The position numbers and the translations under genes are program-made. The notes beneath the pieces were generated by a model. The model searched no databases. It had not been told where the DNA came from and saw nothing but the letters and a program-made list of their open reading frames with translations. A stretch of DNA of 64,000 bases from Dehalococcoidia bacterium. Its GTDB lineage: Bacteria > Chloroflexota > Dehalococcoidia > Lucifugimonadales > G958296245. Within the stretch, counting starts at the first letter, position 1, and each line of letters opens with the position of its first letter. The stretch is taken from positions 3,220,347 to 3,284,346 of the forward strand of contig CBDHEI010000002.1 of NCBI GenBank assembly GCA_965262055.1. Reading direction: 5' to 3'. Positions 2,476 to 62,546 of the stretch are shown in pieces.

Positions 2476-4461
2476 ATGAAGCTCAACATTAAGGTCATAG
2501 CGGCGGTTCTTGGGCTGGTAACGATGGCCACCATGCTCGTGGCATGCACTACGGAAGTGATCAAGGAGGTGGCGGTCGAACAGGTCGTCACCGAGACGGT
2601 GGTGAAAGAAGTTCCGGTTGAGGTTGTTGTGGAGAAGGAGGTTGTGAAAGAGGTGCCAGTTCAGAGGGTGGTCGAGGTGGAGGTGATCAAAGAGGTCGAG
2701 GTTCAGAAGGTTGTAGAGAAGGAGGTAGTGAGAGAGGTGGAAAGGCCGGTGATCGTAGAGAAGGAAGTGGTTAGAGAGGTTGAAGTGTTCAGAGAGGTCT
2801 CCGTGGCAGCTCCCGCAGCCGAGAAAGAGGTGCTGAGAGGGGCCGAGAAGGTAGTTGAGCTTATGGTGATTGTTGAAGAGGAGCCTGCAAGGGAAGTCAA
2901 TAAGCCGGTCGTAGAGAAAGAGGTCGTCAAAGAGGTTGCGATGGAGGTCGAGGTCGCGGTATCGGGAGGGTCCACGGGATCCCGGAGACCTTCCACCTCT
3001 CCTGCCTCGACTTCCAGGTCGGGTGGGACCCCGCCGGCCACGACCTTCAAGGACTACCAGCGCGAGAGGTTCGTATCCGCGGTGGAGGACGCGGTCTCGA
3101 CATTCAGCCTCGATACCGACCGCACCTCGTACCACCTCGCCCTCAACTGGGCCCGCACCGGCTACAGGGTCGAGCCCGACTCCGTTAGGGCAGAGGAGTG
3201 GATCAACGCCTTCAACTACGGCTACGAGCCGCCGCTTCACAGCGACAGCTTCGCCATATCGACCGACGTGGTCAGGCACCCCCTGGACGGCGGGCTGCAC
3301 CTCGCGCGAATCGCGTTCCAGGCGCCCGATTTCAGCTACGACAGTACGCCGGTCAACGTGACGCTCGTGCTCGACGCCTCAGGCTCGATGCGTGAAGGAA
3401 ACCGGGTAGACATAGCCAGGGAGACCGCCGAGAGCATCAGGCGCAGCCTGCGCACAGGAGACCGCATCGCCGTCGTACAATTCACCAACAGCGTCGTTGA
3501 CGATCTCACGGTCATGCACACTGACCCGGATGACCGCGATGTCATGAGGTCGATAGACGAGCTCAGACCGCGCGGCTCTACGAACGTGCAGGCCGGCCTG
3601 AATCTCGGTGTGCGTCTCGCCGACCGCGCCCGTCGCGACAACCCCGGATCCTACAACTACATCATCCTCATGTCGGACGGCGTCGCCAATGTGGACGCCA
3701 CAGACCCGTTCGGCATCCTGGAGTCCGCCTACGACCGGGACAGCGGCAACCCGCTGCGGCTGATCACCATCGGGGTCGGCGTCGAGAACTACAACGACTA
3801 CCTCCTGGAGCAGCTGGCCCAGCACGGCAACGGCTGGTACCGGTACCTGAGCGACACCGAGCAAGCGCGGGCGACCTTCAGCCGCGACAACTGGTTGGCC
3901 CTATCCATCCCGTTCGCCGACCAGACCCGCGCCCAGGTGACGTGGGACACCGACGTGGTCAGGTCTTGGCGCATCGTCGGCTACGAGAACCGCGTCACCT
4001 CGGACGAGTCGTTCACGCAGGCTCGCAAGGAGTTCGCTGAAATACCCGCCGGCGCTGCCACGACGGTCTTCTACGAGCTGGAGCTGAGGGACCAGGGTAG
4101 GGGCGATGTTGCCAAGCTCGGCGACATCGAGCTGCGGTGGGTGACCCCGTCCACGGGCGATTCAAACCGCCAGCACGCACCGATCATGAGCCGCAGGGAC
4201 GTGGAGCGTGACGCGATGGGTGAGGCGATGCTGCAGATGGGCGCCATCGTGGCCCTGTCTTCGGACTTGTACAGCAGCCTTCCTCATGCACGCTCGTCCG
4301 ACTCGCAGGTAGATAGAGACCTCGCCTACCTGATGGACGAGCTCCTGTCGTTGGATGGACAGCTCGGAAGCCTGGGGGCCTACCGGGACATGGTCTTCCT
4401 GATGGAGCACATCACCCGCGATTCCAGGGCGGCGTCTATGCCTTCCGGCTACAGCCGGTAG
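2476..4461 (+). CDS. vWA-domain (YfbK-like) lipoprotein with Glu/Val/Lys repeat stalk
   Basis: RBS; lipobox MLVAC; long EV repeats; STFSLDTDRTSY and VRAEEWINAF (vWF_A N-terminal-like); MIDAS VLDASGSM. Confidence 0.9.
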   Translation: MKLNIKVIAAVLGLVTMATMLVACTTEVIKEVAVEQVVTETVVKEVPVEVVVEKEVVKEVPVQRVVEVEVIKEVEVQKVVEKEVVREVERPVIVEKEVVREVEVFREVSVAAPAAEKEVLRGAEKVVELMVIVEEEPAREVNKPVVEKEVVKEVAMEVEVAVSGGSTGSRRPSTSPASTSRSGGTPPATTFKDYQRERFVSAVEDAVSTFSLDTDRTSYHLALNWARTGYRVEPDSVRAEEWINAFNYGYEPPLHSDSFAISTDVVRHPLDGGLHLARIAFQAPDFSYDSTPVNVTLVLDASGSMREGNRVDIARETAESIRRSLRTGDRIAVVQFTNSVVDDLTVMHTDPDDRDVMRSIDELRPRGSTNVQAGLNLGVRLADRARRDNPGSYNYIILMSDGVANVDATDPFGILESAYDRDSGNPLRLITIGVGVENYNDYLLEQLAQHGNGWYRYLSDTEQARATFSRDNWLALSIPFADQTRAQVTWDTDVVRSWRIVGYENRVTSDESFTQARKEFAEIPAGAATTVFYELELRDQGRGDVAKLGDIELRWVTPSTGDSNRQHAPIMSRRDVERDAMGEAMLQMGAIVALSSDLYSSLPHARSSDSQVDRDLAYLMDELLSLDGQLGSLGAYRDMVFLMEHITRDSRAASMPSGYSR

Positions 4462-4482
4462 AAACCTCGCGATTCTTGCAAA

Positions 4483-6534: not shown

Positions 6535-6566
6535 ACACCGGATGCCGCCGCGCTGCGGTTGCTAAA

Positions 6567-8268
6567 CCCGAATCCACCGAAGGACACCGATGGACGGCGT
6601 GAGGACAGCGGCAGGGTGGGTGAGGGAGCTACAGGGGAGATGGCTGGGCTCATTGGGGTAGATTGGATCGGCGAACGGTCTTCAGTCGCCGCAGAGGGCC
6701 CCTATGGCCCTCTGCGGGAGCTGCGATGCGCGGGATGGCGAGAGAATACGCAGCAGGGAACTCTCTCGGACCGGGGTGGCACGAGTTTGCAGGGAAGTTG
6801 GGTCAGTTGCAGGCTGGCAGTTCAGGCGGGGAGTGGAATGGCTCGCAGCCGGGCCATGGCGCGAGTGAACTGGGTTTCCCAAGTCCAATGCTGGGGAAGA
6901 TGCAGGGTAAGGCGGCGCGCCGAGCGGGTGATCCGTCCCACCAGAGCGAAGACCCGCCGCCTGAGGGTCTTGGTGGTCACGGTCCGTTCGGCCAGACCGA
7001 TGCGCGCTGTCCAGCGGGCGAGGTTGTGTGCCATCACCTGCACCGCCAGCCAGGCGCCGTTGGCGGCGAAGCGCCCCGAGGGGAGATGGTTGAGTCCGAC
7101 GCCGTGTTTCAGGTCTCGAATGGCGTTCTCGATCTCGGCGTGGCGGCGATGATCGGCCTCCAGTTCCAGGGTTTCCCCGTCCCGGTCGGTGATGAAGCCG
7201 TGATAGCTGTAGGTGGCGAAGAGGGCCAACTGGGAACCGGGCGTGGGCTTCACCCGCCGGACGATGAGCCGCACCGGCGCGGCGTCGGGTTCACTCTGGA
7301 AGGGGGTATAGGTGGTCTCGGCCACATCGGCGGCGCCGTCCATCCAGTAGGGAATCGGCGTCCAGTCCTGCTCGGGGATCGCCTCAATCAACTCCCGCAG
7401 GCCTTTGTGCTGGCGGATGGTGATGGAGAAGCGGACACCCATCTCGCGGCAGACGGCGACGAGAGCGTGGGCGTAGAAGCCGCTGTCGGCGCGCACCGTG
7501 AGTTGGCCGCTGGCCCCACCGTAGCGCACCCGCCCCACCGTTTCACGCAGGAAGTGGGCAGCGCCGCGAGCGGTGTTGGCACGGCCCTCGCGCAGCCGGG
7601 ACATCAGCACGTCGCCGGTTCCGGCGGCGATGGCCAGCAGTGGGTGATAGCCCCGCGCGCCGGTGTAGTTGTGGTGTCGCGCCCCTTCTTTGTCCAGTCC
7701 ATAGGTCTCGCAGATGGTGGAGTCCAGGTCGATGGTAAGGGGCGAGTCGCCGGGTCCGGCCCCAGCGGCCCATGCGCGTGCCAGCAACTGGCGGCTCACC
7801 CGGTCGAGTTGACGGACATGCCCCCACCGGAAGCTGCGCAGGAAGGTGCCCAGGGTGGATGGCGCCTTGACCACGCAGCCGAGAACACCGACCGTCCCAC
7901 CAGCACGCAGCGCATCAGCGTCGTCGATGAAGTCGCCGCCCGCCAGCGCGGAAGCGACCAGCGTCAGCAGTTTGTCCCCCGTGTTCGCCCGCCCCGGTGC
8001 GCAGCCGAGGTCGAGGTGATGGTCGACGAGTTCCCGCAGGCCCAGGTGCTGTGCAAGGGTGGCCGGCAGGAGCAGGCCGGCATTGGCCACCAGGCGGTGG
8101 TCGTCAAAGACGACGCGGATACGGTCGGGATTGTTCTGTGGCAGCATCTACTGGGTGCTCCTTGTTTCCGGGCGGTTTTCTGTTTCAAAACCATTCTCCC
8201 AGATTCAGAGGAGCACCCTCTGGCTTCTTCAAGGACTGTCCCCAAAGTCGTCTTTCGGTGGATTCGGG
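6567..8268 (-). mobile_element. IS1380-family element A, copy 1 (1702 bp)
   Basis: 15-bp TIR CCCGAATCCACCGAA at both ends; 5-bp direct repeat CTAAA at 6562-6566 and 8269-8273. Confidence 0.95.
6822..8147 (-). CDS. IS1380-family DDE transposase (441 aa, intact)
   Basis: IDLDST, VRADSGF and AEIENAIRDLK catalytic-type motifs; near-identical to 42404..43729 and 57806..59131. Confidence 0.93.
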   Translation of the reverse strand: MLPQNNPDRIRVVFDDHRLVANAGLLLPATLAQHLGLRELVDHHLDLGCAPGRANTGDKLLTLVASALAGGDFIDDADALRAGGTVGVLGCVVKAPSTLGTFLRSFRWGHVRQLDRVSRQLLARAWAAGAGPGDSPLTIDLDSTICETYGLDKEGARHHNYTGARGYHPLLAIAAGTGDVLMSRLREGRANTARGAAHFLRETVGRVRYGGASGQLTVRADSGFYAHALVAVCREMGVRFSITIRQHKGLRELIEAIPEQDWTPIPYWMDGAADVAETTYTPFQSEPDAAPVRLIVRRVKPTPGSQLALFATYSYHGFITDRDGETLELEADHRRHAEIENAIRDLKHGVGLNHLPSGRFAANGAWLAVQVMAHNLARWTARIGLAERTVTTKTLRRRVFALVGRITRSARRLTLHLPQHWTWETQFTRAMARLRAIPLPA

Positions 8269-8270
8269 CT

Positions 8271-8309
8271 AAAGAGGGGCCGACTCCGAGAGCCGGCCCC
8301 TCTTTCTTT
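8271..8309 (+). terminator. intrinsic terminator of the vWA array, now separated from it by the IS
   Basis: AAAGAGGGGCCG (8271-8282) pairs with CGGCCCCTCTTT (8294-8305), followed by CTTT. Confidence 0.75.
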
Positions 8310-8326
8310 GCTACGGGGGGTATCCA

Positions 8327-8600
8327 ATCATCCCAATCACAGACACTGCACAAAGCACAGTCGCTTTGACCTACACGCACGTGTGCGCTACTCTATCGCC
8401 ATGGATCGATTAGCATCTACGCCGCTACCCCGCCGCTCCGCATCCAGTGGCGCCGGGGAACTGTTTCACTTTCGTTCCAAAAGCGTCTCAAATGCGCCCA
8501 CTCGTGTCTCAGAGACGCTCCAATCGCTCCCAAAGAACCTGAAGCCCCAGATAGGAAATGGAACAAAATGGAACAGAACGGAACACTTTTCAGGGGCTCC
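8327..8600 (+). repeat. dispersed promoter plus leaderless-ORF cassette, copy A
   Basis: Shares ATCATCCCAATCAC, promoter geometry, CAGATAGGAAA and GGAACACTTT with the reverse complement of about 59680-59947. Confidence 0.75.
8366..8394 (+). promoter_or_regulatory. sigma70-type promoter TTGACC-N17-TACTCT, ATG 6 nt downstream (leaderless geometry)
   Basis: Direct reading of the sequence; the same geometry occurs at 59877-59905 on the minus strand. Confidence 0.6.
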
Positions 8601-8694
8601 TCCGGCTCACCGCCTCCGCAGTGACCTTGGAAGCGCTGCTCCCCCGGCCGGGTGTACAATAAGGGCCAGCTTATGGACACGCCGGATACCGTAG
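8401..8694 (+). CDS. putative 97-aa leaderless ORF of cassette A
   Basis: ATG 6 nt after the -10 box; shares PQIGN-xxx-WN at identical codon positions with 59352..59870. Coding status unproven; overlaps the next gene by 22 nt. Confidence 0.3.
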   Translation: MDRLASTPLPRRSASSGAGELFHFRSKSVSNAPTRVSETLQSLPKNLKPQIGNGTKWNRTEHFSGAPPAHRLRSDLGSAAPPAGCTIRASLWTRRIP

Positions 8695-10909: not shown

Positions 10910-11815
10910 CGTCACCTTTTCAATGGGCCCGAAGACGTCCTCCAGGATCCTGCGGACCGTGGCGATGGTCTCCGGCGGGGCATCCGGCCAGGGAGGGCAT
11001 CTGCGGGCGGTCGGGTAGAGGCCACGCAGGTGGATGGCCCCCTTGATGGCGTGAAGCCAGTCGACCTGCAGGGCGCCTTCGAACCACGGGTCCTCGTAGC
11101 GGAAGACCATCTGCCAAGCGTCATCGTAGCGTCCGGACTCCAAGTGTTCGTAGAACTCTATGGCAATGTCGGGTCGGAAGGGCGCTATGCCGCACTGGAA
11201 GGCGGGAGAACCAACTTGGTACGCGTAGATCATGTAGCGCATCCGCCCGGCGCAAATGGTCGAGAAGTCCTCATCTGCAGTCGCGATCGTCAGGTCTAGG
11301 TATGCCTCCATGTCGTGGATCATCGCGCCAGCCACGTTGGAGCGCTTGGCCAGCTCGGCCCCCATGGAGACGGGCGGCGCCCCGTCCTCGAGCACCAGCG
11401 GGATGTCCGAGGCGCCTTCTATCCGGTCGAAGTAGCCTATGTACACGTCGGGCAGGTCGCGGATCGCCGGATCTACCTGTATCCTGACGGCGTCGGCTCC
11501 CACGCTGTCCGCATGGGCCAGGAACTCACGGCACTTGCTCGCCTTCCACCGGCCGGTCCCGGCTATGTACACGGCACGCCCGGCAGTGACCCCTGCGACT
11601 TCCGCGGTCAGTTGCCACACCTCCTCGTCGGAGAGGCTGGTAAACTCGCTGCTGCCCGTGGCCATCGAGATTACGGGCACGCCGTTATCGCACATCCAGT
11701 CGACGTACCTGACGACCGACGGGAAGTCCACGGAGCCGTCCTCATTGAAGCATGTGTTTAGCGGGACGACAGCTCCCCTGATTCTCTCTGCTACTTCCTT
11801 TGTCCTCTCTGACAT
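10904..11815 (-). CDS. DapA/NAL-family TIM-barrel protein lacking the canonical Schiff-base lysine
   Basis: PLNTCFNEDGSVDF, GSSEFTSLSDEE and DSVGADAV match the family; NVAGAM stands where NIVGIK is expected. Confidence 0.75.
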   Translation of the reverse strand: MSERTKEVAERIRGAVVPLNTCFNEDGSVDFPSVVRYVDWMCDNGVPVISMATGSSEFTSLSDEEVWQLTAEVAGVTAGRAVYIAGTGRWKASKCREFLAHADSVGADAVRIQVDPAIRDLPDVYIGYFDRIEGASDIPLVLEDGAPPVSMGAELAKRSNVAGAMIHDMEAYLDLTIATADEDFSTICAGRMRYMIYAYQVGSPAFQCGIAPFRPDIAIEFYEHLESGRYDDAWQMVFRYEDPWFEGALQVDWLHAIKGAIHLRGLYPTARRCPPWPDAPPETIATVRRILEDVFGPIEKVTL

Positions 11816-11837
11816 ATTGACTCCTCTGCGTCTATGG

Positions 11838-28149: not shown

Positions 28150-29991
28150 CTATCTGCTGTTCATTTCCAGCGCGTTGGTGTATGCCGAAGCGTCCAGCGG
28201 GATGTATCCAACCTCCCGCGTCAGCGCGCGGCCATGCTCCATGTAAAACTCCACGAACGCCGCGACCGCAGACCGCTCCAAGCTCTTCTTGCTCACGTAG
28301 ATGAACAGTGGGCGCGCCAGGGGAGTGTAGTCCCCGGACTCTATGGTGTCGGACGTGGGAGCCACGCATCTGTCGCCGTCGTCTATCGCTACCACCCTGA
28401 GCTTGTCGGTGTTCTCCTGGTAGTACGCGTAGCCGAAGTAGCCCAGTGCGTTCCTGTCGCCCGATATCCCCTGGACCAGCACGTTGTCGTCTGCCGACGC
28501 CGTGTAGTCGGCACGGCTCGCCTGGGCCTCTCCTACGATCTCCTCGGTGAAGTAGTCGAACGTGCCAGAGTCGGTGTCTGGTCCGTACAGACGCAACGGC
28601 CTGTCCGGGAAGCTGTCCTTCACCTGGTTCCAGTTCGTTACCGAGGACCCCGGCTCCCAGATCTCCTTCAACTCGGATACCGACAGACAGTCCACAAAGT
28701 CGTTTCCAGGATTTACCATCACCGACAGACCGTCGGTGCCTACCTTGATCTCAATGTACTCGACGCCGTTGTCTACGGCCGACTGCGCCTCGGAGTCCTT
28801 GATGGGCCGCGAAGCGTCTGATATGTCGGTCTCACCCACGACGAACCTCTTGAAGCCGCCGCCGGTGCCCGACACTCCTACGTTCACCCTCACCTCAGGG
28901 TGTATCTTCCCGAACTCCTCGGCGACCGCCTCGGTAATCGGGTACACTGTGCTAGACCCATCGATCTCGATGGTGCCGGTGAGCTTCTCCATGGTCATCT
29001 TGGCGGGGATCTTCTCTGGGACTTTCTGCATGCCGCCTTCGATGCTGTAGGCTTCGGGCGCCAGCGGGATGTATCCAACCTCCTGTGTCAGCGTGCGCCC
29101 ATGCTCCATGTAAAAGTCCACGAAGGCCGCCACCTCCGGCCGCTCCAAGCTCTCCTTGCTTACGTAGATGAACAGCGGGCGGGCCAGGGGAGTGTAGTCC
29201 CCGGACTCGATCGTGTCGGACGTGGGAGCCACACACCCGTCGCCGTCGTCTATCGCCAACACCTTGAGCTTGTTGGTGTTTTCCTGGTAGTACGCGTATC
29301 CGAAGTAGCCCAGCGCGTTCCTGTCGCCCGATATGCCCTGGACCAGCACGTTGTCATCAGCAGAGGCCGTGTAGTCCCAACGGCTTGCCTGGGCCTCGCC
29401 TACGATCTCCTTGGTGAAGTAGTCGAATGTACCGGAGTCCGTATCGGGCCCGTAGAGAGCCAGGGGTCTGTTGGGGAAGAATGGGCTGACATGGTTCCAG
29501 GTCCTGACCGTGGACCCAGGTTCCCAGATCCTTTTGAGCTCTCCTACGGAAAGACAGTCCACGAAGTCGTTTTCGGGGTTTACCATGACTGACAGGCCAT
29601 CGGTGCCCACCTTGATCTCTAGGTACTCAATGCCATTGTCGGCGGCGGCCCGTGCTTCGGAGTCCTTGATGGGCCGCGAGGCGTCGGATATGTCGGTCTC
29701 GCCCACGACGAACCTCTTGAACCCGCCGCCGGTGCCCGACACTCCCACGTTCACTCTCACTTCGGGGTGTACCTTACCAAACTCCTCGGCAACCGCCTCG
29801 GTGATCGGGTAGACCGTGCTCGATCCATCGATCTCGACGGTACCGGTGAGCTTCTCCATGGTCTTTGGAGGCGCCGCTGTCGGCTCTTCCTCACCGCCCC
29901 CGCAGGCGACCGCCAGCAGAGGAACAAGCGCCAGCACCGATAGCCATATCTTCCAAGCCTTAAGGGACCTGATCATTCGCATTCTCCTCAT
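28150..29991 (-). CDS. pstS: phosphate-binding lipoprotein with two tandem PstS domains
   Basis: Lipobox LAVAC; [15 protein letters not shown] and DSGTFDYF each occur twice, with unit starts 867 nt apart. Confidence 0.93.
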
Positions 29992-33736: not shown

Positions 33737-35722
33737 CTATTCCAGCTGCCCGTGAAGCGGTCCAGTCTCGTTGAGCGGGTGAGTCGTCCCGAACTCGGCG
33801 ATGTCGGTCTGGTGCATCAGGTACTCCCACTCGCCGCCGCCCGCGAACTGAGGCGTGAAGACGATCTCCTTCAGCTGCGAGGGCTGTGGGCGCCTGCCAT
33901 ATCCGGGAATCCATACGTGGGCGCCGTAGGTCGTCAGGCCCAGCCCCGTGGATACCACCACGATGGGAAGGTCCTCGATGAACATCTCGTTGATCTGAAG
34001 ACCGATCTTTACGAGGTCGTCATCGTTGAGAGCCCTTGGCACCGCGTCGAGCAGGGCGTCCAACTCTGGAGTGGCGTAGCCCATTGCGTTGGTATTCTGG
34101 CTGTGGAAGTAGTAGTTCAGGTGGTCCACAGCGCCGCCCCAGCCACCGACGTACACGAGGTCGTAGTTGTAGTTCTCGTAGTACACCGCGGCCCAGACCG
34201 GTGTCTCCATCGTCTCGAAGGTGACCCTCAGTCCGGAATCCGCGAGCATCTGCTGCTTTGCGGCCATCTGGGGCCGCTGGTCTGCGCCATACCCTGGGGC
34301 CTTGGCTTTTACCTCGCGATCGAAGTCCCAACCAGCCTCCTCGAGGAGCGCACGGGCCTTCATGCTGTCGCCGGTATGGGAGTAGCGGGCCTTCAACTCA
34401 TCGGTCTCAACGCCCGTGGGTACGAACAGGTTCGTGTTGTGGATGTACCCGAGACCGGCGCTGAACGTGTCCACAATCTGCTTGCGGTTCAGAGCCCACA
34501 TGAACGCTTGGTGTATGCGCGCGTCAGCGATCCAGTCGGTGCGGAAGTTGAACGAGAAGCCGCGGCCATTCCCGCGCCCGCCCACCGCCGCGATCAGGAA
34601 TCGGGGGTCTGCCAGGAACGACTGGTTCACCTCAGGTGAGAAGCCGCCGCGCCTGCTGCCGTCGATCTCACCCCGCTGCATGGCGATCTGGGCCGTGTCA
34701 GGGCTGGTGATCAGGTGTACGAACACCCTGTCGATTTTCGGCTTACCCAGGTAGTAGTCGTCGTTGCTGATCAGCTCATGGAACTGGTCAGGCTCGTGCT
34801 TGACGAACTTCCAGGGGCCGGAGCCTATGGGCTTCTGCGACCCCAGGCCGATGAAGAACTCGCTGTCGTCGATGTCCTCAGGGCCCAGGCTGCCCAGGAT
34901 GTGCTCGGGGAGTAACCAGACTCCGGCGGCCTGGGTCAGGAACTGTCCCGTTGGGAAGGCCATGTCGAACCGGATCGTATAGTCGTCGATTACGTTGATG
35001 CCCTCTACCGAGTCGGTGGTGCCCTCGGCGAAGGCTTCCGCCCCCTTCACCATCGCGAGCCTCTGGACGGCGCGGCTCTTGGTCCGCGGGTCCATGTAGG
35101 ACGTGAAGGAGAAGGCTATGTCGTCGGCCGTTACGGGCTCACCGTCGTGGAAGAAGGCGTTCTTCTGCAGATAGAAAGTCGCCGAGCTTCCGTCGGGAGC
35201 AACTTCCCAGCGCGCCGCCATGTTGGGCGCATACCTCTGATCGTGGGGGTTGCCCGTCATGAGGGTCGAGAAGACGTGCAGGCCTATCAGGCCTGTGTAT
35301 CCGCTGACCGCCGTGAACGGCGACAGCTTCGTGACGGCGCTGGAGGCGCGCCAGTTGAGGACCGAGGCAGCCACCTCCCCTTCGCCCACTACAACCTCCT
35401 TGAATACCTCTACCTCCCGGACAACCTCCTTCTCCACAACGACCGGTACCTCTACCTCCCTCACAACCTCTTTCTCGACCACCCTCTCTACCGTTACCTC
35501 TACCTCCCTCACAACCTCTTTCTCGACCACCACCTCTACAGGCACCTCTTTAATGACTTCTCTCTCGACCACCACCTCGACCGGTACCTCTTTCACCACC
35601 GTCTCGGTGACGACCTGCTTTACAGGGATCTCCTTGATCACTTCGCGCGTTCCACACGCAACAGCCGCCCCGAGAGCAATGACTGCAGCTATCGCGGCCA
35701 ACAACCGGTAGACTTTTAGCAT
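33737..35722 (-). CDS. family-5 ABC solute-binding lipoprotein with Glu/Val stalk; paralog of 22106..23923
   Basis: Lipobox AAVAC; EV repeats; KLSPFTAVSGY; AMQRGEID; GGAGGAGG RBS. Confidence 0.9.
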   Translation of the reverse strand: MLKVYRLLAAIAAVIALGAAVACGTREVIKEIPVKQVVTETVVKEVPVEVVVEREVIKEVPVEVVVEKEVVREVEVTVERVVEKEVVREVEVPVVVEKEVVREVEVFKEVVVGEGEVAASVLNWRASSAVTKLSPFTAVSGYTGLIGLHVFSTLMTGNPHDQRYAPNMAARWEVAPDGSSATFYLQKNAFFHDGEPVTADDIAFSFTSYMDPRTKSRAVQRLAMVKGAEAFAEGTTDSVEGINVIDDYTIRFDMAFPTGQFLTQAAGVWLLPEHILGSLGPEDIDDSEFFIGLGSQKPIGSGPWKFVKHEPDQFHELISNDDYYLGKPKIDRVFVHLITSPDTAQIAMQRGEIDGSRRGGFSPEVNQSFLADPRFLIAAVGGRGNGRGFSFNFRTDWIADARIHQAFMWALNRKQIVDTFSAGLGYIHNTNLFVPTGVETDELKARYSHTGDSMKARALLEEAGWDFDREVKAKAPGYGADQRPQMAAKQQMLADSGLRVTFETMETPVWAAVYYENYNYDLVYVGGWGGAVDHLNYYFHSQNTNAMGYATPELDALLDAVPRALNDDDLVKIGLQINEMFIEDLPIVVVSTGLGLTTYGAHVWIPGYGRRPQPSQLKEIVFTPQFAGGGEWEYLMHQTDIAEFGTTHPLNETGPLHGQLE

Positions 35723-42235: not shown

Positions 42236-42282
42236 GTGTCGCACCACGGGGCCACGGGGGTGTCACCCACACATCCCCTTAA

Positions 42283-43988
42283 CCCGAATCCACCGAAAGA
42301 CGACTTTGGGGACAGTCCTTGAAGAAGCCAGAGGGTGCTCCTCTGAATCTGGGAGAATGGTTTTGAAACAGAAAACCGCCCGGAAACAAGGAGCACCCAG
42401 TAGATGCTGCCACAGAACAATCCCGACCGTATCGGCGTCGTCTTTGACGACCACCGCCTGGTGGCCAATGCCGGCCTGCTCCTGCCGGCCACCCTTGCAC
42501 AGCACCTGGGCCTGCGGGAACTCGTCGACCATCACCTCGACCTAGGCTGCGCATCGGGGCGGGCGAACACGGGGGACAAACTGCTGACGCTGGTCGCTTC
42601 CGCGCTGGCGGGCGGCGACTTCATCGACGACGCCGATGCGCTGCGTGCTGGTGGGACGGTCGGTGTTCTCGGCTGCGTGGTCAAGGCGCCATCCACCCTG
42701 GGCACCTTCCTGCGCAGCTTCCGGTGGGGGCATGTCCGTCAACTCGACCGGGTGAGCCGCCAGTTGCTGGCACGCGCATGGGCCGCTGGGGCCGGACCCG
42801 GCGACTCGCCCCTTACCATCGACCTGGACTCCACCATCTGCGAGACCTATGGACTGGACAAAGAAGGGGCGCGACACCACAACTACACCGGCGTGCGGGG
42901 CTATCACCCACTGCTGGCCATCGCCGCCGGAACCGGCGATGTGCTGATGTCCCGGCTGCGCGAGGGCCGTGCCAACACCGCTCGCGGCGCTGCCCACTTC
43001 CTGCGTGAAACGGTGGGGCGGGTGCGCTACGGTAGGGCCAGCGGCCAACTCACGGTGCGCGCCGACAGCGGCTTCTACGCCCACGCTCTCGTCGCCGTCT
43101 GCCGCGAGATGAGTGTCCGCTTCTCCATCACCATCCGCCAGCACAAAGGCCTGCGGGAGTTGATTGAGGCGATCCCCGAGCAGGACTGGACGCCGATTCC
43201 CTACTGGATGGACGGCGCCGCCGATGTGGCCGAGACCACCTATACCCCCTTCCAGAGTGAACCCGACGCCGCGCCGGTGCGGCTCATCGTCCGGCGGGTG
43301 AAGCCCACGCCCGGTTCCCAGTTGGCCCTCTTCGCCACCTACAGCTATCACGGCTTCATCACCGACCGGGACGGGGAAACCCTGGAACTGGAGGCCGATC
43401 ATCGCCGCCACGCCGAGATCGAGAACGCCATTCGAGACCTGAAACACGGCGTCGGACTCAACCATCTCCCCTCGGGGCGCTTCGCCGCCAACGGCGCCTG
43501 GCTGGCGGTGCAGGTGATGGCACACAACCTCGCCCGCTGGACAGCGCGCATCGGTCTGGCCGAACGGACCGTGACCACCAAGACCCTCAGGCGGCGGGTC
43601 TTCGCTCTGGTGGGACGGATCACCCGCTCGGCGCGCCGCCTTACCCTGCATCTTCCCCAGCATTGGACTTGGGAAACCCAGTTCACTCGCGCCATGGCCC
43701 GGCTGCGAGCCATTCCACTCCCCGCCTGAACTGCCAGCCTGCAACTGACCCAACTTCCCTGAAAACTCGTGCCACCCCGGTCCCGCGAGAGTTCCCTGCT
43801 GCGTATTCTCTCGCCATCCCGCGCATCGCAGCTCCCGCAGAGGGCCATAGGGGCGCAAGGCGGCGACTGAAGACCGTTCGCCGACCTTCCAATCTACCCC
43901 AATGAGCCCAGCCATCTCCCCTGTAGCTCCCTCACCCACCCTGCCGCTGTCCTCACGCCGTCCATCGGTGTCCTTCGGTGGATTCGGG
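42283..43988 (+). mobile_element. IS1380-family element A, copy 2 (1706 bp)
   Basis: Same 15-bp TIRs; flanks CTTAA and CTAAA (one mismatch). Confidence 0.95.
42404..43729 (+). CDS. IS1380-family transposase (intact)
   Basis: 441 aa, near-identical to copies 1 and 3. Confidence 0.93.
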   Translation: MLPQNNPDRIGVVFDDHRLVANAGLLLPATLAQHLGLRELVDHHLDLGCASGRANTGDKLLTLVASALAGGDFIDDADALRAGGTVGVLGCVVKAPSTLGTFLRSFRWGHVRQLDRVSRQLLARAWAAGAGPGDSPLTIDLDSTICETYGLDKEGARHHNYTGVRGYHPLLAIAAGTGDVLMSRLREGRANTARGAAHFLRETVGRVRYGRASGQLTVRADSGFYAHALVAVCREMSVRFSITIRQHKGLRELIEAIPEQDWTPIPYWMDGAADVAETTYTPFQSEPDAAPVRLIVRRVKPTPGSQLALFATYSYHGFITDRDGETLELEADHRRHAEIENAIRDLKHGVGLNHLPSGRFAANGAWLAVQVMAHNLARWTARIGLAERTVTTKTLRRRVFALVGRITRSARRLTLHLPQHWTWETQFTRAMARLRAIPLPA

Positions 43989-51046: not shown

Positions 51047-52922
51047 TCCCAGATTCCCCACCTAACATAGTTGGTGTGGCCTTCGTGGATTTACGCCCGT
51101 GTTGAGTATCGATTCGGTGGTTCCATATGGTCGGATCGGGCCGTAGGTAGGACCTTGGCCGAAGACTTTGAGGGTATGGGCAGCGTAGCCGCACCGATTA
51201 TGGCTGTCCTCAGGCCGAAGAAGGCATGGCGCAGCCTGGGCGACCTTGCTGAGTCGCCTTCAACCGATGCACAGACAGGACCGCTTATGGTTGGTACGGC
51301 TCGGCGGACAGCGCCAATATCCTCTGACGTGCCCTGATCAACAACTCGTATGAGGGATGGCCCCGCGCCAGACGGATGATCAGCTTCCTGGCGTGTCGCA
51401 TCACCCGGCCCGGAAGGGCGATCAGGGCGAAGCGCACTGCCTTGAGACGCTTGCTCACCCACTGTCCTCCCAACGCCAGCCGCTTCATCGCAGAGCTCAG
51501 GTTGAAGGCCAGCACCGCTATGGCCCACCATGCGGCGTTGGCTCCGAACAGCCCCGACGGGAGCCTGCCCGCAGCCAGGTCACTCTTCAGGACGCTGTGG
51601 ACCTGCTCGCCTTTACCGCATCTCTGCCTGTACCACCGGATCATCTCATCTCCCGGAAGGTCTCGGTTGGTCACCAACCCGGAGACCTTGTGCCAGGCTC
51701 CGCCGGCCAGCCTCATCACGGGGAAGGGCAGTTCCAGCTGCAGTTCCATTCCCGGCAGAGGCTGTTCGCTCAGCGGCTCCCTGATAGCGATGAACCGGTA
51801 TTCAGGGTTCTTCTTGCTGTAGGCTATCCAGTCTGGTACGAAGTTCACCTCCGCCCACTGTTGACCTGTCTCGACCCAAGTGGCGCCCAGTCTGCGGTGC
51901 GGGGCATGCCAGTCTTGTTCGGCAACCTCGGACACCGCGCGCCTGAACTCCGGCGTCACGTTGAGCCCTACCGCAAACTCGATCACTCCGAAGCGCTCGT
52001 CTCTGCCCTCGGCGCAGTACCGCAGCAACTCGTGCTGATACCCAGCCGCGTCCGACCGCAGCATCACCTTGTCCACCGCACAAGGCAGATGCTCCAACGC
52101 TTCGGTCAACACTCGCAGTTGCTGATAGCCAGCAGGTACGTTGCCGTCCCGAAACTCCGAATGCACTATCAACTCAGCCTCGGCCCAGTAGGTCGTCAGA
52201 GGCTGATACGCCTTGTACTTCTTGTAGCTGTAGAGCGCCTGCTGCTTGTGCGTCTCCACCAGCGTGGCGTCCATGTCCAACGTGGCTTGAGCGCAGGGCG
52301 AACGGCTCTGTACGAAGCTCACCATATCGGCGTTCACCTTATGCAGACCCCCCAGCGCTTCGTTGGGTGAAGGTATGAACGCTCTGTGAGCTTCCCGACT
52401 GGACTCCTCGCCCGCCTCGTGGAATCTCTCCAGGTACCGGAACACCGCCGACTCCGATGGCATGCTCCGCCGACGCTCTACACGCCATCGCTCTTCCAAC
52501 GCTCTACGCTCTCGACGACCCATCCCATAGCTCTCGACTTCCCGAAGCACCCTGCACAACCCCGCGTCCTTCTCCAGAACATCCAGATCGACCACTGACT
52601 CACCGCCTGCCAGGTTCAGCAGTATCAGCGAGCTGACCACTTGGCTGTCCGTCCAGCCCTGACCACACTCCCGCAGTCCCACGTGGCGCTCTACCGACGA
52701 CCTCAAACCTGCTGCGTGCATCAACTCCAAGTACGTCATCATCCCCGCCATCGCCGTCATGCCCGGCGAGCTCTTCTCCTGCTCGTACTGGAACGGCAGA
52801 ACCCCTTGCTTCATAATAGGTGCACCTCGTTGGTGATCGTTTCTCTCTTCCAAGAAACATCTTAGCCCCCTTCACGGCGGGCTCCAACGAGGTCTTCTTC
52901 TTCTCTAGGTGGGGAATCTGGG
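51047..52922 (-). mobile_element. IS1380-family element B (1876 bp)
   Basis: Perfect 17-bp TIR CCCAGATTCCCCACCTA; 4-bp direct repeat TCTT at 51043-51046 and 52923-52926. Confidence 0.92.
51285..52814 (-). CDS. IS1380-family transposase (509 aa), distinct from element A
   Basis: TLDMDATL, LRSDAAGY, GKGEQVHSVLK, PSGLFGANAAW. Confidence 0.88.
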   Translation of the reverse strand: MKQGVLPFQYEQEKSSPGMTAMAGMMTYLELMHAAGLRSSVERHVGLRECGQGWTDSQVVSSLILLNLAGGESVVDLDVLEKDAGLCRVLREVESYGMGRRERRALEERWRVERRRSMPSESAVFRYLERFHEAGEESSREAHRAFIPSPNEALGGLHKVNADMVSFVQSRSPCAQATLDMDATLVETHKQQALYSYKKYKAYQPLTTYWAEAELIVHSEFRDGNVPAGYQQLRVLTEALEHLPCAVDKVMLRSDAAGYQHELLRYCAEGRDERFGVIEFAVGLNVTPEFRRAVSEVAEQDWHAPHRRLGATWVETGQQWAEVNFVPDWIAYSKKNPEYRFIAIREPLSEQPLPGMELQLELPFPVMRLAGGAWHKVSGLVTNRDLPGDEMIRWYRQRCGKGEQVHSVLKSDLAAGRLPSGLFGANAAWWAIAVLAFNLSSAMKRLALGGQWVSKRLKAVRFALIALPGRVMRHARKLIIRLARGHPSYELLIRARQRILALSAEPYQP

Positions 52923-53037
52923 TCTTCATACTTCCTTGACACTACTGTGGTACTTTTAGGGGGATCGTTGCTTCCATCGACTGGGCTGCACTCCAAAGGC
53001 GTGCATCGGGCGTATATGTAGTAGTGAGGAGTCAGCT

Positions 53038-56834: not shown

Positions 56835-57684
56835 GCGGAGGTCATTCCATGGGGTTGCTTTGGCCGGCCTACCTGTTGCTTTTGACCGCGATACCGCTGG
56901 TCGTGGTGGCGTATGTCCTGGTGCTGAGGCGGAGGAGGCGGTTTGCCGTCCAGTACTCCAGCCTGTCCCTTATACGGCAGGCGATGCCAAGCGGCTTCCG
57001 ATGGAGACGCCATCTGCCGTTCGCACTGATGGCGCTTGCCATCGCGTTGCTCATCCTGGCTCTTTCGAGGCCATTCGCAAACGTGACGGTGGCCTCCAGC
57101 AGGACCACCGTAATGCTGGCGCTGGACGTATCGCTGAGCATGTGCGCCGACGACATCTACCCCAACAGGCTCACGGTCGCCCAAGAAGCCGCAGAGGGGT
57201 TCATAGATAGCCAGGAGCCCGGGACCCGGGTGGGCATAGTCGCCTTCGCCGGCATCGCCCAGCTTATCGTGCCGCCCACGACCGACAGGGACGCCCTGCT
57301 GGAGGCGGTATCGAACCTGACCACGGCGCGCGCAACGGCCGTGGGCAGCGCGATCGCCCGCTCGCTCGACGCCCTTGCCGAGGTGAACCCCGACATCGAG
57401 CCCGTAAGCGTGTACGTGACCCCACGGGAAGGCGAGACGGACCCCGGGCTGGAAGACAGCTTTCAGCCGGATGTGATCGTGCTGCTGACGGATGGGGCGA
57501 GCAACCGCGGGGTGCGCCCGCTGGCCGCCGCCCGCGCCGCCCGCGACCGCGGGGTCCGGGTGTACACCATCGGCTTCGGCACAACGAGCCCGTCCGTCTT
57601 GAGGTGCACGCCGGGCCAGCTTGGGGGAGACGAGCTGGCCAACCGCATCGGCCGGGGCGGTTTCGGGAGCTTCGGAGGCTTTAG

Positions 57685-59387
57685 CCCGAATCCACCGAAA
57701 GACGACTTTGGGGACAGTCCTTGAAGAAGCCAGAGGGTGCTCCTCTGAATCTGGGAGAATGGTTTTGAAACAGAAAACCGCCCGGAAACAAGGAGCACCC
57801 AGTAGATGCTGCCACAGAACAATCCCGACCGTATCGGCGTCGTCTTTGACGACCACCGCCTGGTGGCCAATGCCGGCCTGCTCCTGCCGGCCACCCTTGC
57901 ACAGCACCTGGGCCTGCGGGAACTCGCCGACCATCACCTCGACCTCGGCTGCGCACCGGGGCGGGCGAACACGGGGGACAAACTGCTGACGCTGGTCGCT
58001 TCCGCGCTGGCGGGCGGCGACTTCATCGACGACGCCGATGCGCTGCGTGCTGGTGGGACGGTCGGTGTTCTCGGCTGCGTGGTCAAGGCGCCATCCACCC
58101 TGGGCACCTTCCTGCGCAGTTTCCGGTGGGGGCATGTCCGTCAACTCGACCGGGTGAGCCGCCAGTTGCTGGCACGCGCATGGGCCGCTGGGGCCGGACC
58201 CGGCGACTCGCCCCTGACCATCGACCTGGACTCCACCATCTGCGAGACCTATGGACTGGACAAAGAAGGGGCGCGACACCACAACTACACCGGCGCGCGG
58301 GGCTATCACCCACTGCTGGCCATCGCCGCCGGAACCGGCGATGTGCTGATGTCCCGGCTGCGCGAGGGCCGTGCCAACACCGCTCGCGGCGCTGCCCACT
58401 TCCTGCGTGAAACGGTGGGGCGGGTGCGCTACGGTGGGGCCAGCGGCCAACTCACGGTGCGCGCCGACAGCGGTTTCTACGCCCACGCTCTCGTCGCCGT
58501 CTGCCGCGAGATGGGTGTCCGCTTCTCCATCACCATCCGCCAGCACAAAGGCCTGCGGGAGTTGATTGAGGCGATCCCCGAGCAGGACTGGACGCCGATT
58601 CCCTACTGGATGGACGGCGCCGCCGATGTGGCCGAGACCACCTATACCCCCTTCCAGAGTGAACCCGACGCCGCGCCGGTGCGGCTCATCGTCCGGCGGG
58701 TGAAGCCCACGCCCGGTTCCCAGTTGGCCCTCTTCGCCACCTACAGCTATCACGGCTTCATCACCGACCGGGACGGGGAAACCCTGGAACTGGAGGCCGA
58801 TCATCGCCGCCACGCCGAGATCGAGAACGCCATTCGAGACCTGAAACACGGCGTCGGACTCAACCATCTCCCCTCGGGGCGCTTCGCCGCCAACGGCGCC
58901 TGGCTGGCGGTGCAGGTGATGGCACACAACCTCGCCCGCTGGACAGCGCGCATCGGTCTGGCCGAACGGACCGTGACCACCAAGACCCTCAGGCGGCGGG
59001 TCTTCGCTCTGGTGGGACGGATCACCCACTCGGCGCGCCGCCTTACCCTGCATCTTCCCCAGCATTGGCCTTGGGAAACCCAGTTCACTCGCGCCATGGC
59101 CCGGCTGCGAGCCATTCCACTCCCCGCCTGACTGCCAGCCTGCAACTGACCCAACTTCCCTGCAAACTCGTGCCACCCCGGTCCGCGAGAGTTCCCTGCT
59201 GCGTATTCTCTCGCCATCCCGCGCATCGCAGCTCCCGCAGAGGGCCATAGGGGCCCTATGCGGCGACTGAAGACCGTTCGCCGACCTCCAATCTACCCCA
59301 ATGAGCCCAGCCATCTCCCCTGTAGCTCCCTCACCCACCCTGCCGCTGTCCTCACGCCGTCCATAGGTGTCCTTCGGTGGATTCGGG
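57685..59387 (+). mobile_element. IS1380-family element A, copy 3 (1703 bp)
   Basis: Same 15-bp TIRs; 5-bp direct repeat TTTAG at 57680-57684 and 59388-59392. Confidence 0.96.
57806..59131 (+). CDS. IS1380-family transposase (intact)
   Basis: 441 aa, near-identical to copies 1 and 2. Confidence 0.93.
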   Translation: MLPQNNPDRIGVVFDDHRLVANAGLLLPATLAQHLGLRELADHHLDLGCAPGRANTGDKLLTLVASALAGGDFIDDADALRAGGTVGVLGCVVKAPSTLGTFLRSFRWGHVRQLDRVSRQLLARAWAAGAGPGDSPLTIDLDSTICETYGLDKEGARHHNYTGARGYHPLLAIAAGTGDVLMSRLREGRANTARGAAHFLRETVGRVRYGGASGQLTVRADSGFYAHALVAVCREMGVRFSITIRQHKGLRELIEAIPEQDWTPIPYWMDGAADVAETTYTPFQSEPDAAPVRLIVRRVKPTPGSQLALFATYSYHGFITDRDGETLELEADHRRHAEIENAIRDLKHGVGLNHLPSGRFAANGAWLAVQVMAHNLARWTARIGLAERTVTTKTLRRRVFALVGRITHSARRLTLHLPQHWPWETQFTRAMARLRAIPLPA

Positions 59388-59679
59388 TTTAGGGGCGGGA
59401 ACTTCCTGAGGCTGGACGAGGGGACTCTGAGCCGCGTCGCCGAGATCACGGAAGCCGAGTACTACGCGGCTGAGAGCGCGGACGAGCTTCTTCAAGTTTT
59501 CTACACCATACCGGTGCAGATCGAGAAGAAGAAGGTCCGCATGGAGGTCTCGGCGGTGCTGACCGCCATAGGCGCTCTTCTTGCGCTCTCCGCCGTCGCG
59601 CTTGGCCTCCGCTGGAGCCCGCTGCCGTAGCTTTCTGGCCGGGCCGCGTAAGGGCCGGTCCGAGGGAGCCTCCACGCCG

Positions 59680-59947
59680 AAAAATCGTTTCAAAGTGTTC
59701 CATAACGCCCAGTTTCCTATCTGAGGCCTGGACATCTTGGCAGAGAAATGGAGCGCATCTGGGGCACAAATGGACGCCAGACTGATGCGTTTGAGGTGAA
59801 ATGGGACAGGTCCCCGGGGGCTCTTGGCGCCGGAGGGTGCGGCGGCGCGGGTCTGAGGGAGTCCGTTCATGAGGCTATGATAGCACGGCCGTTCGCATGC
59901 ATCAATATCTGAACTGTGATTCGTGGGATGGGTGTGATTGGGATGAT
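59680..59947 (-). repeat. dispersed promoter plus leaderless-ORF cassette, copy B
   Basis: GTGATTGGGATGAT 59934-59947; TTGATG-N17-TATCAT (59905-59877); ATG 59870; TTTCCTATCTG 59713-59723; AAAGTGTTCC 59692-59701. Confidence 0.75.
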
Positions 59948-62375: not shown

Positions 62376-62452
62376 TGGTAGCGCGTACGGGATTCGAACC
62401 CGTGATCTCCGCCTTGAGAGGGCGGTGTCCTGGGCCGCTAGACGAACGCGCC
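62376..62452 (-). tRNA. tRNA-Glu (anticodon CTC)
   Basis: Cloverleaf; anticodon arm CCGCC-CT-CTC-AA-GGCGG; GGTTCGAATCC; encoded CCA. Confidence 0.97.
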
Positions 62453-62472: not shown

Positions 62473-62546
62473 TGGCTGGGGATCGAGGATTCGAACCTCG
62501 GCTTACAGATCCAGAGTCTGTCGTCCTACCACTAGACGAATCCCCA
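62473..62546 (-). tRNA. tRNA-Gln (anticodon CTG)
   Basis: Cloverleaf; anticodon arm ACAGA-CT-CTG-GA-TCTGT; GGTTCGAATCC; encoded CCA. Confidence 0.97.

Follow-up and report, generated by a model that had tools for sequence, protein, structure and literature searches.

Two short intergenic sequences within a 64,000-nucleotide (nt) stretch of DNA from a Dehalococcoidia bacterium (assembly GCA_965262055.1, contig CBDHEI010000002.1, positions 3,220,347 to 3,284,346 of the forward strand; the whole stretch is called the window below) are paralogues in a lineage-specific, multi-copy family of units of about 230 base pairs (bp). On a tentative reading of their sequence, these units are most likely small non-coding RNA genes. 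The two, referred to as copies A and B, are homologous to each other, belong to a family present in many copies and are retained at orthologous loci; they share with the other members a conserved promoter, a strand asymmetry in base composition and a peptide that is not conserved.

Copy A, complete family unit from promoter to T-run: 8364..8590, + strand; family-profile nhmmer E=4.8e-46; orthologues at loci L022, L023, L027 and L028.
Copy B, complete family unit: 59680..59909, - strand; nhmmer E=1.2e-44; orthologues at loci L030 and L032.

The similarity between the two copies is too weak for a blastn self-comparison of the window at E<=1e-3. A gapped local alignment nevertheless scores 49, compared with 20.4±2.7 (maximum 33) for 500 dinucleotide shuffles, and no 411-nt chunk from either strand of the window scores higher against copy A than copy B does, so the homology is real. 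A first-pass annotation of this DNA had described a repeated cassette of about 290 bp (8327-8694) with a set of motifs and spacings, all of which were found in both copies by direct reading. These are the 14-mer ATCATCCCAATCAC at 8327-8340 (+) and 59947-59934 (-), the pattern TTGAnn-N17-TAnnnT followed after 6 nt by an ATG at 8401 and 59870, the sequence CAGATAGGAAA exactly 147 nt past each ATG (8548 in copy A, 59723 in copy B), and GGAACACTTT. The boundaries of the cassette had to be redrawn: the family-wide unit covers 8364-8590 and 59909-59680, and the 14-mer and the tail of open reading frame (ORF) A up to 8694 fall outside the family core.

Copy number and distribution

The pattern CAGATAGGAAA-N9-ATGGAACA was scanned for in one genome per species from 185,579 species and gave 18 matches, 17 of them in a single assembly, a metagenome-assembled genome (MAG) named 'Dehalococcoidia bacterium'. 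The eighteenth, in Methanothrix, is a chance match and the only one in the other 185,578 species genomes. Fifteen of the 17 MAG copies occupy both strands of a 3.5-Mb chromosome (OY760867.2), between positions 0.02 and 3.4 Mb, and the other two lie on small contigs and are apparent duplicates of L008 and L017. All of the MAG copies can be aligned to copies A and B across about 230 nt. A profile built from the aligned copies recovers exactly these sequences and no further copy in the window; the MAG also holds one divergent extra member, at its copy A locus (L025). The window itself is not from that MAG, as shared genes are 72-80% identical in DNA, and the proteins encoded beside the units are 77% (vWA) and 84% (thiamine pyrophosphate (TPP) enzyme) identical. 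The same pattern gave three chance matches in JGI metagenome contigs, none fitting the profile, and no match in IMG/VR. In the collections scanned, the family is thus confined to a small clade of uncultured Dehalococcoidia.

Among the outcomes that the first-pass annotation had named as speaking against its cassette were the lack of any more copies and an alignment no better than shuffles; instead, further copies exist and the score exceeds every shuffle. Its view of a dispersed unit that carries its own promoter is upheld by a multi-copy family with a conserved promoter, and its impression that no recognised class fits also stands. The family is undescribed, being absent from Rfam 15, Pfam and the papers searched: there was no match in Rfam 15, in Pfam or, beyond the copy A locus itself, in a search of 5.8 billion proteins, and literature string searches with family sequences found none.

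Inheritance at orthologous loci

Orthologous loci were fetched from related assemblies through homologues of the flanking vWA and TPP-enzyme proteins. Copy A stands at the same place and in the same orientation in L023, L027 and L028 (vWA protein 89-92% identical to that of the window) and is also kept in L022, an ENA contig of a 97%-identical strain. Copy B is kept in L030, whose TPP enzyme is 93% identical, and in L032 (86%). Across the loci that retain copy A or B, neighbouring proteins are thus 86-97% identical to those of the window, and the more distant loci L024, L026, L029 and L033 are without the unit. Divergence within the B lineage is uneven, at about 16% in the 5' third of the predicted transcript and about 6% in the 3' two-thirds (counted by eye). 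Persistence at orthologous loci together with this uneven divergence indicates that the unit is a stable, constrained resident of the genome and not just a recent repeat.

The extra MAG member lies at the locus orthologous to copy A in inverted orientation:

Divergent family member at L025: 11672-11906, - strand; MAG chromosome OY760867.2, copy A-orthologous locus, inverted.

It has an intact promoter, an ATGCAC start and a 53-amino-acid (aa) open frame ending at a TAG homologous to that in CAGATAGG. Its 3' repeats read AAGAC/GAGAC/GGGAC and are accompanied by matching body motifs GTCTC/GTCCC, a pattern in which covariation and decay are not distinguishable. The co-evolution of body motifs and 3' repeats that this divergent copy brought to mind was compared through self and cross duplex energies, which do not discriminate, and it is not claimed.

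A conserved promoter and start

Copy A promoter: 8366..8394, + strand; -35 TTGACC at 8366-8371, 17-nt spacer, -10 TACTCT at 8389-8394, as read from the sequence.
Copy B promoter: 59877..59905, - strand; TTGATG at 59905-59900, 17-nt spacer, TG-TATCAT (hexamer at 59882-59877); 9/12 matches in a promoter scan, with the TG extension.

Across the family, the promoter consensus is cTTGACa-cccg-CGAACG-ccc-GTGCTAacaT. Among 20 aligned copies, the -35 box is TTGAC in 17, the remainder having TTGAT, TTGCA or TTGCC; the extended -10 TG is present in 19 and TAnnnT in all 20, while the inner bases of the -10 vary. Conservation restricted to the critical -35 and -10 positions is, as judged from the aligned sequences, what selection on a promoter should produce. 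In the promoter scan, copy B passes and copy A fails, since its -10 matches at only 3 of 6 positions; the orthologues of copy A keep the full TGnTAnnnT, and the window copy has private substitutions by which the TG is lost. The CGAACG within the promoter spacer is exact in 17 of the 20 copies and one base off in 2 more. Of 26 copies, 25 have an ATG at or next to the predicted start (L028 has GTG), separated from the -10 by 6-7 pyrimidine-rich nt, or by 8 in L009 and L016. With a promoter in common, the copies probably share their regulation.

A variable body and a constant 3' module

Copy A predicted transcript body: 8401..8547, + strand; starts at the conserved ATG, the predicted transcription start; C-rich and poorly conserved.
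Copy A constant 3' module: 8548..8590, + strand; CAGATAGGAAA, GGAAC at 8560, 8570 and 8580, TTTT at 8587-8590.
Copy B variant 3' module: 59680..59723, - strand; CAGATAGGAAAC-TGGGCGTT-ATGGAACAC-TTTGAAACG-ATTTTT; kept in the window copy (winB), L030 and L032.

The bodies are 137-159 nt long and only 41-61% identical between subfamilies. Their C-richness always falls on the same strand, with 36-45% C and 21-29% G in every subfamily, and most copies have a predicted GC-rich hairpin of variable sequence near +25 to +55. Four conserved islands stand out in the body, CCsGG, GTyCCA, CCrTTCGT and GCGyTCC. The body is followed by a near-invariant 40-nt purine block made of GGAAA and three GGAAC in a strict 10-nt period, with the consensus CCCAGATAGGAAAyGGAACAAAATGGAACAGAATGGAACA, then nnTTTT. 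Identity in this block is 72-91% among the eight subfamilies other than B and 59-69% between these and the B-type block. Some body motifs are complementary to the 3' repeats (CCrTTC to GAATGG, GTTCC to GGAAC), and this pairing depends on the register: in an alignment of 20 sequences, 81% of cells are paired, compared with 16-49% when the register is slid.

The units as candidate small RNA genes

Transcription of the units, the 3' end of the transcript and any function are inferred here from sequence, and the proposed mechanism is accordingly conditional throughout. Each unit would be transcribed from its own extended -10 promoter of the sigma70 type, starting at or next to the near-invariant ATG. 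The transcript would consist of the C-rich, fast-evolving body of 137-159 nt, the 40-nt purine-rich module and a U-run. The constant 3' module would be the working part, either as a platform on which a protein docks or is titrated or as a base-pairing seed present in many copies; several of the 3' repeats fit the A-N-GGA type of site, which would suit the docking or titration option. Through the shared promoter, all copies would respond together.

Several observations weigh against small RNA (sRNA) genes. No hairpin precedes the T-run in the units, so that with a T-run alone they do not have an intrinsic terminator. The minimum-free-energy z-scores of the two copies, -1.27 and +0.74, give no fold signal, and the RNAalifold consensus reaches only -4.83 kcal/mol. 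The candidate pairing between body and repeats is found in 81.3% of cells compared with 81.2% after column shuffling, with covariation scores of 0.166 and 0.171, respectively. A strict 10-nt repeat period is more typical of proteins that bind one face of double-stranded DNA, and the conserved CGAACG sits in the promoter spacer, which would not be transcribed, and calls for an explanation at the level of DNA. In the MAG, seven near-identical copies have spread along with a fragment of a miniature inverted-repeat transposable element (MITE), and the near-invariant start ATG followed by an open frame 0, stop-free through the body in 11 of 12 representatives compared with 3 and 7 for the other two frames, hints at translation.

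A conserved RNA fold was rejected, as single-sequence folds, RNAalifold on 14 and on 25 sequences and the formal pair count show no covariation. A known RNA family was likewise rejected, both gathering and permissive Rfam thresholds being empty for the units: at gathering thresholds the whole window contains only two tRNAs, an adjacent pair at 62379-62452 and 62476-62546 (-), and a search of both copies against Rfam 15 at E<=10 returned sub-threshold noise only. A canonical intrinsic terminator, AAAGAGGGGCCGACTCCGAGAGCCGGCCCCTCTTTCTTTG, is present at 8268-8310; it belongs to the vWA gene upstream of copy A, from which an insertion sequence (IS) now separates it. This terminator indicates that the hairpin-plus-T type is in use in this genome, and the units are without one.

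A possible DNA-level element

The units might instead act as DNA, as an array of binding sites for a transposase, for the arm-type domain of a tyrosine recombinase or for a transcription factor, which would make them non-autonomous mobile elements or regulatory landing pads. Their promoter would then be incidental or would drive neighbouring genes. This alternative is considered unlikely. It draws on the three or four direct GGAAC repeats placed exactly 10 bp apart, on inverted GTTCC or GTTCG in the body and CGAAC in the promoter spacer, and on unit ends that are far better conserved than the middle, as in transposons; RNA covariation was not found, and the MAG member at the copy A locus is inverted. 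A hint of mobility comes from a MITE of about 130 nt with terminal inverted repeats CCCCAAATCCCCCACCT ... AGGTGGGGGATTTGGG, which lies on one or both sides of the members of one near-identical unit subfamily, at L002, L005, L006, L007, L011 and L018 on OY760867.2, at L025 (11990-12060) and at L028. The seven near-identical MAG units belong here, and in five of them the junction to a 5'-truncated copy of this MITE is the same. Near-identity and the shared junction together show that one subfamily was recently amplified with the MITE, and this suggests that its units may have been amplified as MITE cargo.

The MITE, which has its own inverted repeats, is nevertheless an element separate from the unit and travels with the only near-identical subfamily. 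In the family alignment the units themselves lack terminal inverted repeats and do not share a left terminus upstream of the -35 box, and no target-site duplication was resolved by inspection by eye around the MITE-flanked copies. Their left end bears the signature of a working promoter in which only the functional -35 and -10 positions are fixed, and, unusually for site arrays, the spacers between the repeats vary no more than the repeats do. The C-rich strand bias is kept in diverged copies, copies are stable at orthologous loci over 3-14% divergence of neighbouring proteins, and no gene for a partner protein is linked to the units. The degenerate mobile element that the first-pass annotation had listed among its options is neither established nor dismissed by these observations: one subfamily has recently spread with a MITE, and the units lack terminal inverted repeats.

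A different element adjoins both copies. The first-pass annotation had reported no transposase, which does not hold for their surroundings: the window contains three 99%-identical, 1.71-kb IS copies of the IS1380 family, at 6562-8274 (-), 42279-43988 and 57679-59392 (+). They encode a 441-aa DDE_Tnp_1_4 transposase (Pfam E=1e-58) and have the inverted repeat CCCGAATCCACCGAARGAC and 5-bp duplications CTAAA and TTTAG.

IS1380-family IS: 6562..8274, - strand; transposase at 6822-8147; between the vWA gene and copy A, outside the unit.
IS1380-family IS: 57679..59392, + strand; interrupts the BatB-type vWA gene (56849-57724 + 59367-59630) near copy B, outside the unit.

In L022, which is without the first of these, the vWA stop codon is followed by the terminator hairpin and unit A, and CTAAA, duplicated in the window, occurs once; in L030, an intact 361-aa BatB gene is followed by unit B. 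These IS-free alleles show that the IS copies are recent, independent insertions, and since they retain the unit, it is not part of the adjacent IS1380 element.

Another IS1380-like element occupies 51047-52923 of the window, with a 522-aa DDE_Tnp_1_4 transposase at 51285-52853 (-). It is bounded by inverted xCCCAGATTCCCCACCT, and two related copies lie in MAG locus L005. As its ends are like the terminal inverted repeats of the 130-nt MITE, it may be the autonomous partner of that MITE.

A possible translated module that binds a dedicated protein

A combination of these properties is also conceivable, in which the 40-nt module, as RNA or as DNA, docks a dedicated protein, and a transcript beginning with AUG at its 5' end is loaded with ribosomes and translated without yielding a conserved protein. 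The unit would then be a regulatory RNA that is translated but non-coding, or a recombination or mobility module that carries a promoter. Such an element would be of a new kind, specific to this Dehalococcoidia lineage and lacking any described counterpart, and is held to be doubtful.

Neighbouring genes and a possible portable promoter

Eighteen copies were surveyed for their context, and no ORF with gene-like GC content at third codon positions (GC3) plausibly spans the unit. A same-strand gene follows 30-270 nt downstream in 11 of these copies, and 6, copy B included, are convergent with the next gene; copy B faces the 3' end of the BatB-type vWA gene and is divergent from the TPP-enzyme gene. 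The genes downstream encode Macro, GHMP kinase, GFO/IDH/MocA, GGT, DHPS, aldo/keto reductase (AKR), MoxR, PPK2, LepA and DUF1802 proteins. As the neighbours have no common function, the unit is not the shared leader of one regulon, and a regulon leader, cis-regulatory leader or riboswitch was rejected on these heterogeneous neighbours and mixed orientations.

The link to vWA operons drawn in the first-pass annotation dissolves in the same way. Such neighbours occur only next to copies A and B, each of which lies 3' of a vWA gene, and at L006, upstream of a MoxR gene, and the two vWA genes of the window differ in type, one being YfbK-like (533 aa) and the other BatB. Given the heterogeneous neighbours of the other copies, the adjacency is coincidental.

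It is distinctly unlikely that the unit is a portable promoter or leader that drives same-strand genes, or makes antisense RNA to convergent ones, with the purine block as a translation-initiation or standby region. No terminator was found inside the unit, the same-strand genes of the 11 copies lie close downstream, and the block resembles a Shine-Dalgarno sequence (AGGAAA, GGA) and contains ATGs; at L003, the longest downstream ORF begins within it. Against this reading, 6 of the 18 copies converge with the next gene, and the ratio of 11 same-strand to 6 convergent copies is near that of random orientation. About 190 nt of body and block are conserved although a promoter needs none of them. 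For the AKR gene that follows copy A, a promoter-like TGTACAAT of its own was read by eye, and this motif is also found at L024 and L025, related loci that have no unit in the same orientation.

Coding potential

ORF A, 97 aa: 8401..8694, + strand; from the predicted transcription start; not a conserved coding sequence.

The least likely of the readings retained is that the units are leaderless small-ORF genes, either for fast-evolving basic peptides or with translation itself being what matters, for instance by shielding a C-rich RNA from Rho. The start ATG is present in 25 of 26 copies even though it can lie 6, 7 or 8 nt past the -10. Openness of frame 0 exceeds that of composition-matched shuffles, for which the probability of an open frame is 0.25-0.54, but the copies compared are related. 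One shared TAG, within CAGATAGG, closes the ORF in five subfamilies (placed by hand for the divergent MAG copy).

Most other properties of the frame speak against coding. The family ORFs from the ATG range from 39 to 172 aa; the distance from ATG to block is 0, 1 or 2 modulo 3 in different copies, and close relatives differ by frameshifts (L015 vs L002, L010 vs L004). The peptides are unrelated, and the conserved nucleotide islands are read in different frames. The GC content of ORF A by codon position is 0.56/0.62/0.55, GC3 in the ORFs is 0.55-0.70 compared with 0.81-0.82 in two window genes measured in frame, and identity between copies A and B is flat over the codon positions (0.49/0.57/0.51). 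Between the window copy A (winA) and L023, a hand count gives 5 synonymous changes to 9 non-synonymous ones, a near-neutral ratio, and L028 starts with GTG instead of ATG. Among 5.8 billion proteins, ORF A matched none but that of its own locus in the 97%-identical strain, and neither ORF A nor ORF B has a Pfam match, so that a protein family was rejected. On these sequence properties, the ORF for the most part does not appear to encode a conserved protein, although the open frame leaves some chance that the transcript is translated without a conserved product.

The first-pass annotation had offered a small-protein family or a type I toxin-like module among its interpretations, and neither accords with a frame whose length, phase at the block and peptide are all unconserved, whose GC3 is low and whose only protein match is its own locus. 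For a type I toxin in particular, the predicted peptides are Arg/Pro-rich, hydrophilic (by eye) and unconserved, and the promoter scan detected no second promoter on the opposite strand of either copy.

Two further candidates can be dismissed briefly. Retrotransposition in the manner of short interspersed nuclear elements (SINEs) does not fit, because the -35 and -10 boxes upstream of the start are copied with the unit and an RNA intermediate would not carry them; and readings of the motifs as sites for LexA (GAAC-N4-GTTC), extracytoplasmic function (ECF) sigma factors (-35 GGAAC) or sigma54 fail on the consensus spacing or on the right half-sites.

Accessory upstream module and other repeats

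Copy A accessory module: 8327..8365, + strand; 14-mer ATCATCCCAATCAC and a CACAGTC motif; outside the family core.
Copy B accessory module: 59906..59947, - strand; the 14-mer and AATCACAGTTCAGA.

The first-pass annotation had included the 14-mer in the cassette. This sequence is restricted to winA, winB, L013 and their orthologues, and it stands alone at L031, the MAG copy B locus, where the accessory module lies beside the BatB stop codon with no unit. Related AATCAC motifs are found upstream at L017, and at L028 two MITE insertions separate the 14-mer from the promoter. A second MITE family, with ends ...TAACTGTTCAGAC / GTCTGAACAGTTA, is present at L028 (about 11700-11830), where it is inserted within the 14-mer module with a 10-bp duplication CCAATCACAG, and also near units in L001, L007, L008, L015, L016 and L033. 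The AATCACAGTTCAGA upstream of copy B resembles the terminus of this second family.

The window contains other repeats as well. Positions 8-851 match 3619-4462 (88%), 28194-28996 and 29061-29863 form a near-tandem duplication (86%), and 934-1300 matches 2430-2783 (76%). A repeat family of about 250 nt is represented at 1062-1340, 2554-2798 and 35394-35644, with 69-74% identity.

Comparison with known systems

Multi-copy families of paralogous sRNAs are known from other bacteria, such as Qrr1-5 of Vibrio. LhrC1-5 of Listeria constitute another such family (PMC4132741). Like families of the LhrC/Qrr type, the units described here are intergenic paralogues, several to a genome, with similar promoters of their own and with a short repeated motif as the conserved, putatively functional part. 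They differ in number, with about 18 or more in one genome compared with 4-7 copies, in having no terminator hairpin, conserved stem-loops or known chaperone or target, and in a motif that is purine-rich (GGAAC) and not C/U-rich, in addition to the near-invariant 5' ATG.

The protein-titrating sRNAs of the CsrB/RsmY/RsmZ type also combine repeated GGA motifs with an otherwise poorly conserved RNA and several redundant genes per genome. The units have four GGA motifs, of which ACGGA and AUGGA fit A-N-GGA; their display in hairpin loops is not supported and there is no terminator, so that the likeness is one of a 3-nt motif only. Correia/NEMIS, ERIC and BOX elements resemble the units in being dispersed, intergenic sequences of about 100-250 bp in tens of copies, some with outward promoters, and one unit subfamily was likewise recently amplified. 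Unlike these elements, the units have no terminal inverted repeats or clear target-site duplication, persist at orthologous loci and fall into subfamilies too diverged (body 41-61%) for recent transposition, with promoter and 3' block kept. Finally, the arm-type array of a tyrosine-recombinase attP site, such as lambda P'1-P'3, recalls the units in its size of about 240 bp, in three direct repeats spaced about 10 bp apart at one end and in inverted copies of the motif elsewhere; the units, in contrast, have no linked integrase gene and no recognisable core-type site, and occur in many chromosomal copies.

Significance

The family is one of dispersed, putative small transcription units between genes, most likely sRNA genes. 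Three features are unusual and may leave room for something more novel: an ATG at the predicted 5' end whose frame is open yet non-coding, the lack of a terminator, and a purine block with a 10-nt period. The family also poses a problem for annotation, since gene callers can predict a hypothetical protein from the open frame; the protein collection contains one such entry (P0001).

To our knowledge, almost nothing is known about RNA- or repeat-based regulation in uncultured Dehalococcoidia or other Chloroflexota. About 20 units per genome, probably co-regulated, would represent a sizeable regulatory layer in these bacteria, and among genomes with only 77-84% identity in the neighbouring proteins, its promoter and 40-nt module have changed much less than other parts of the unit. 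If real, a 5' AUG with an open frame but no conserved protein would provide a clean case for asking whether leaderless translation serves any purpose besides the making of proteins.

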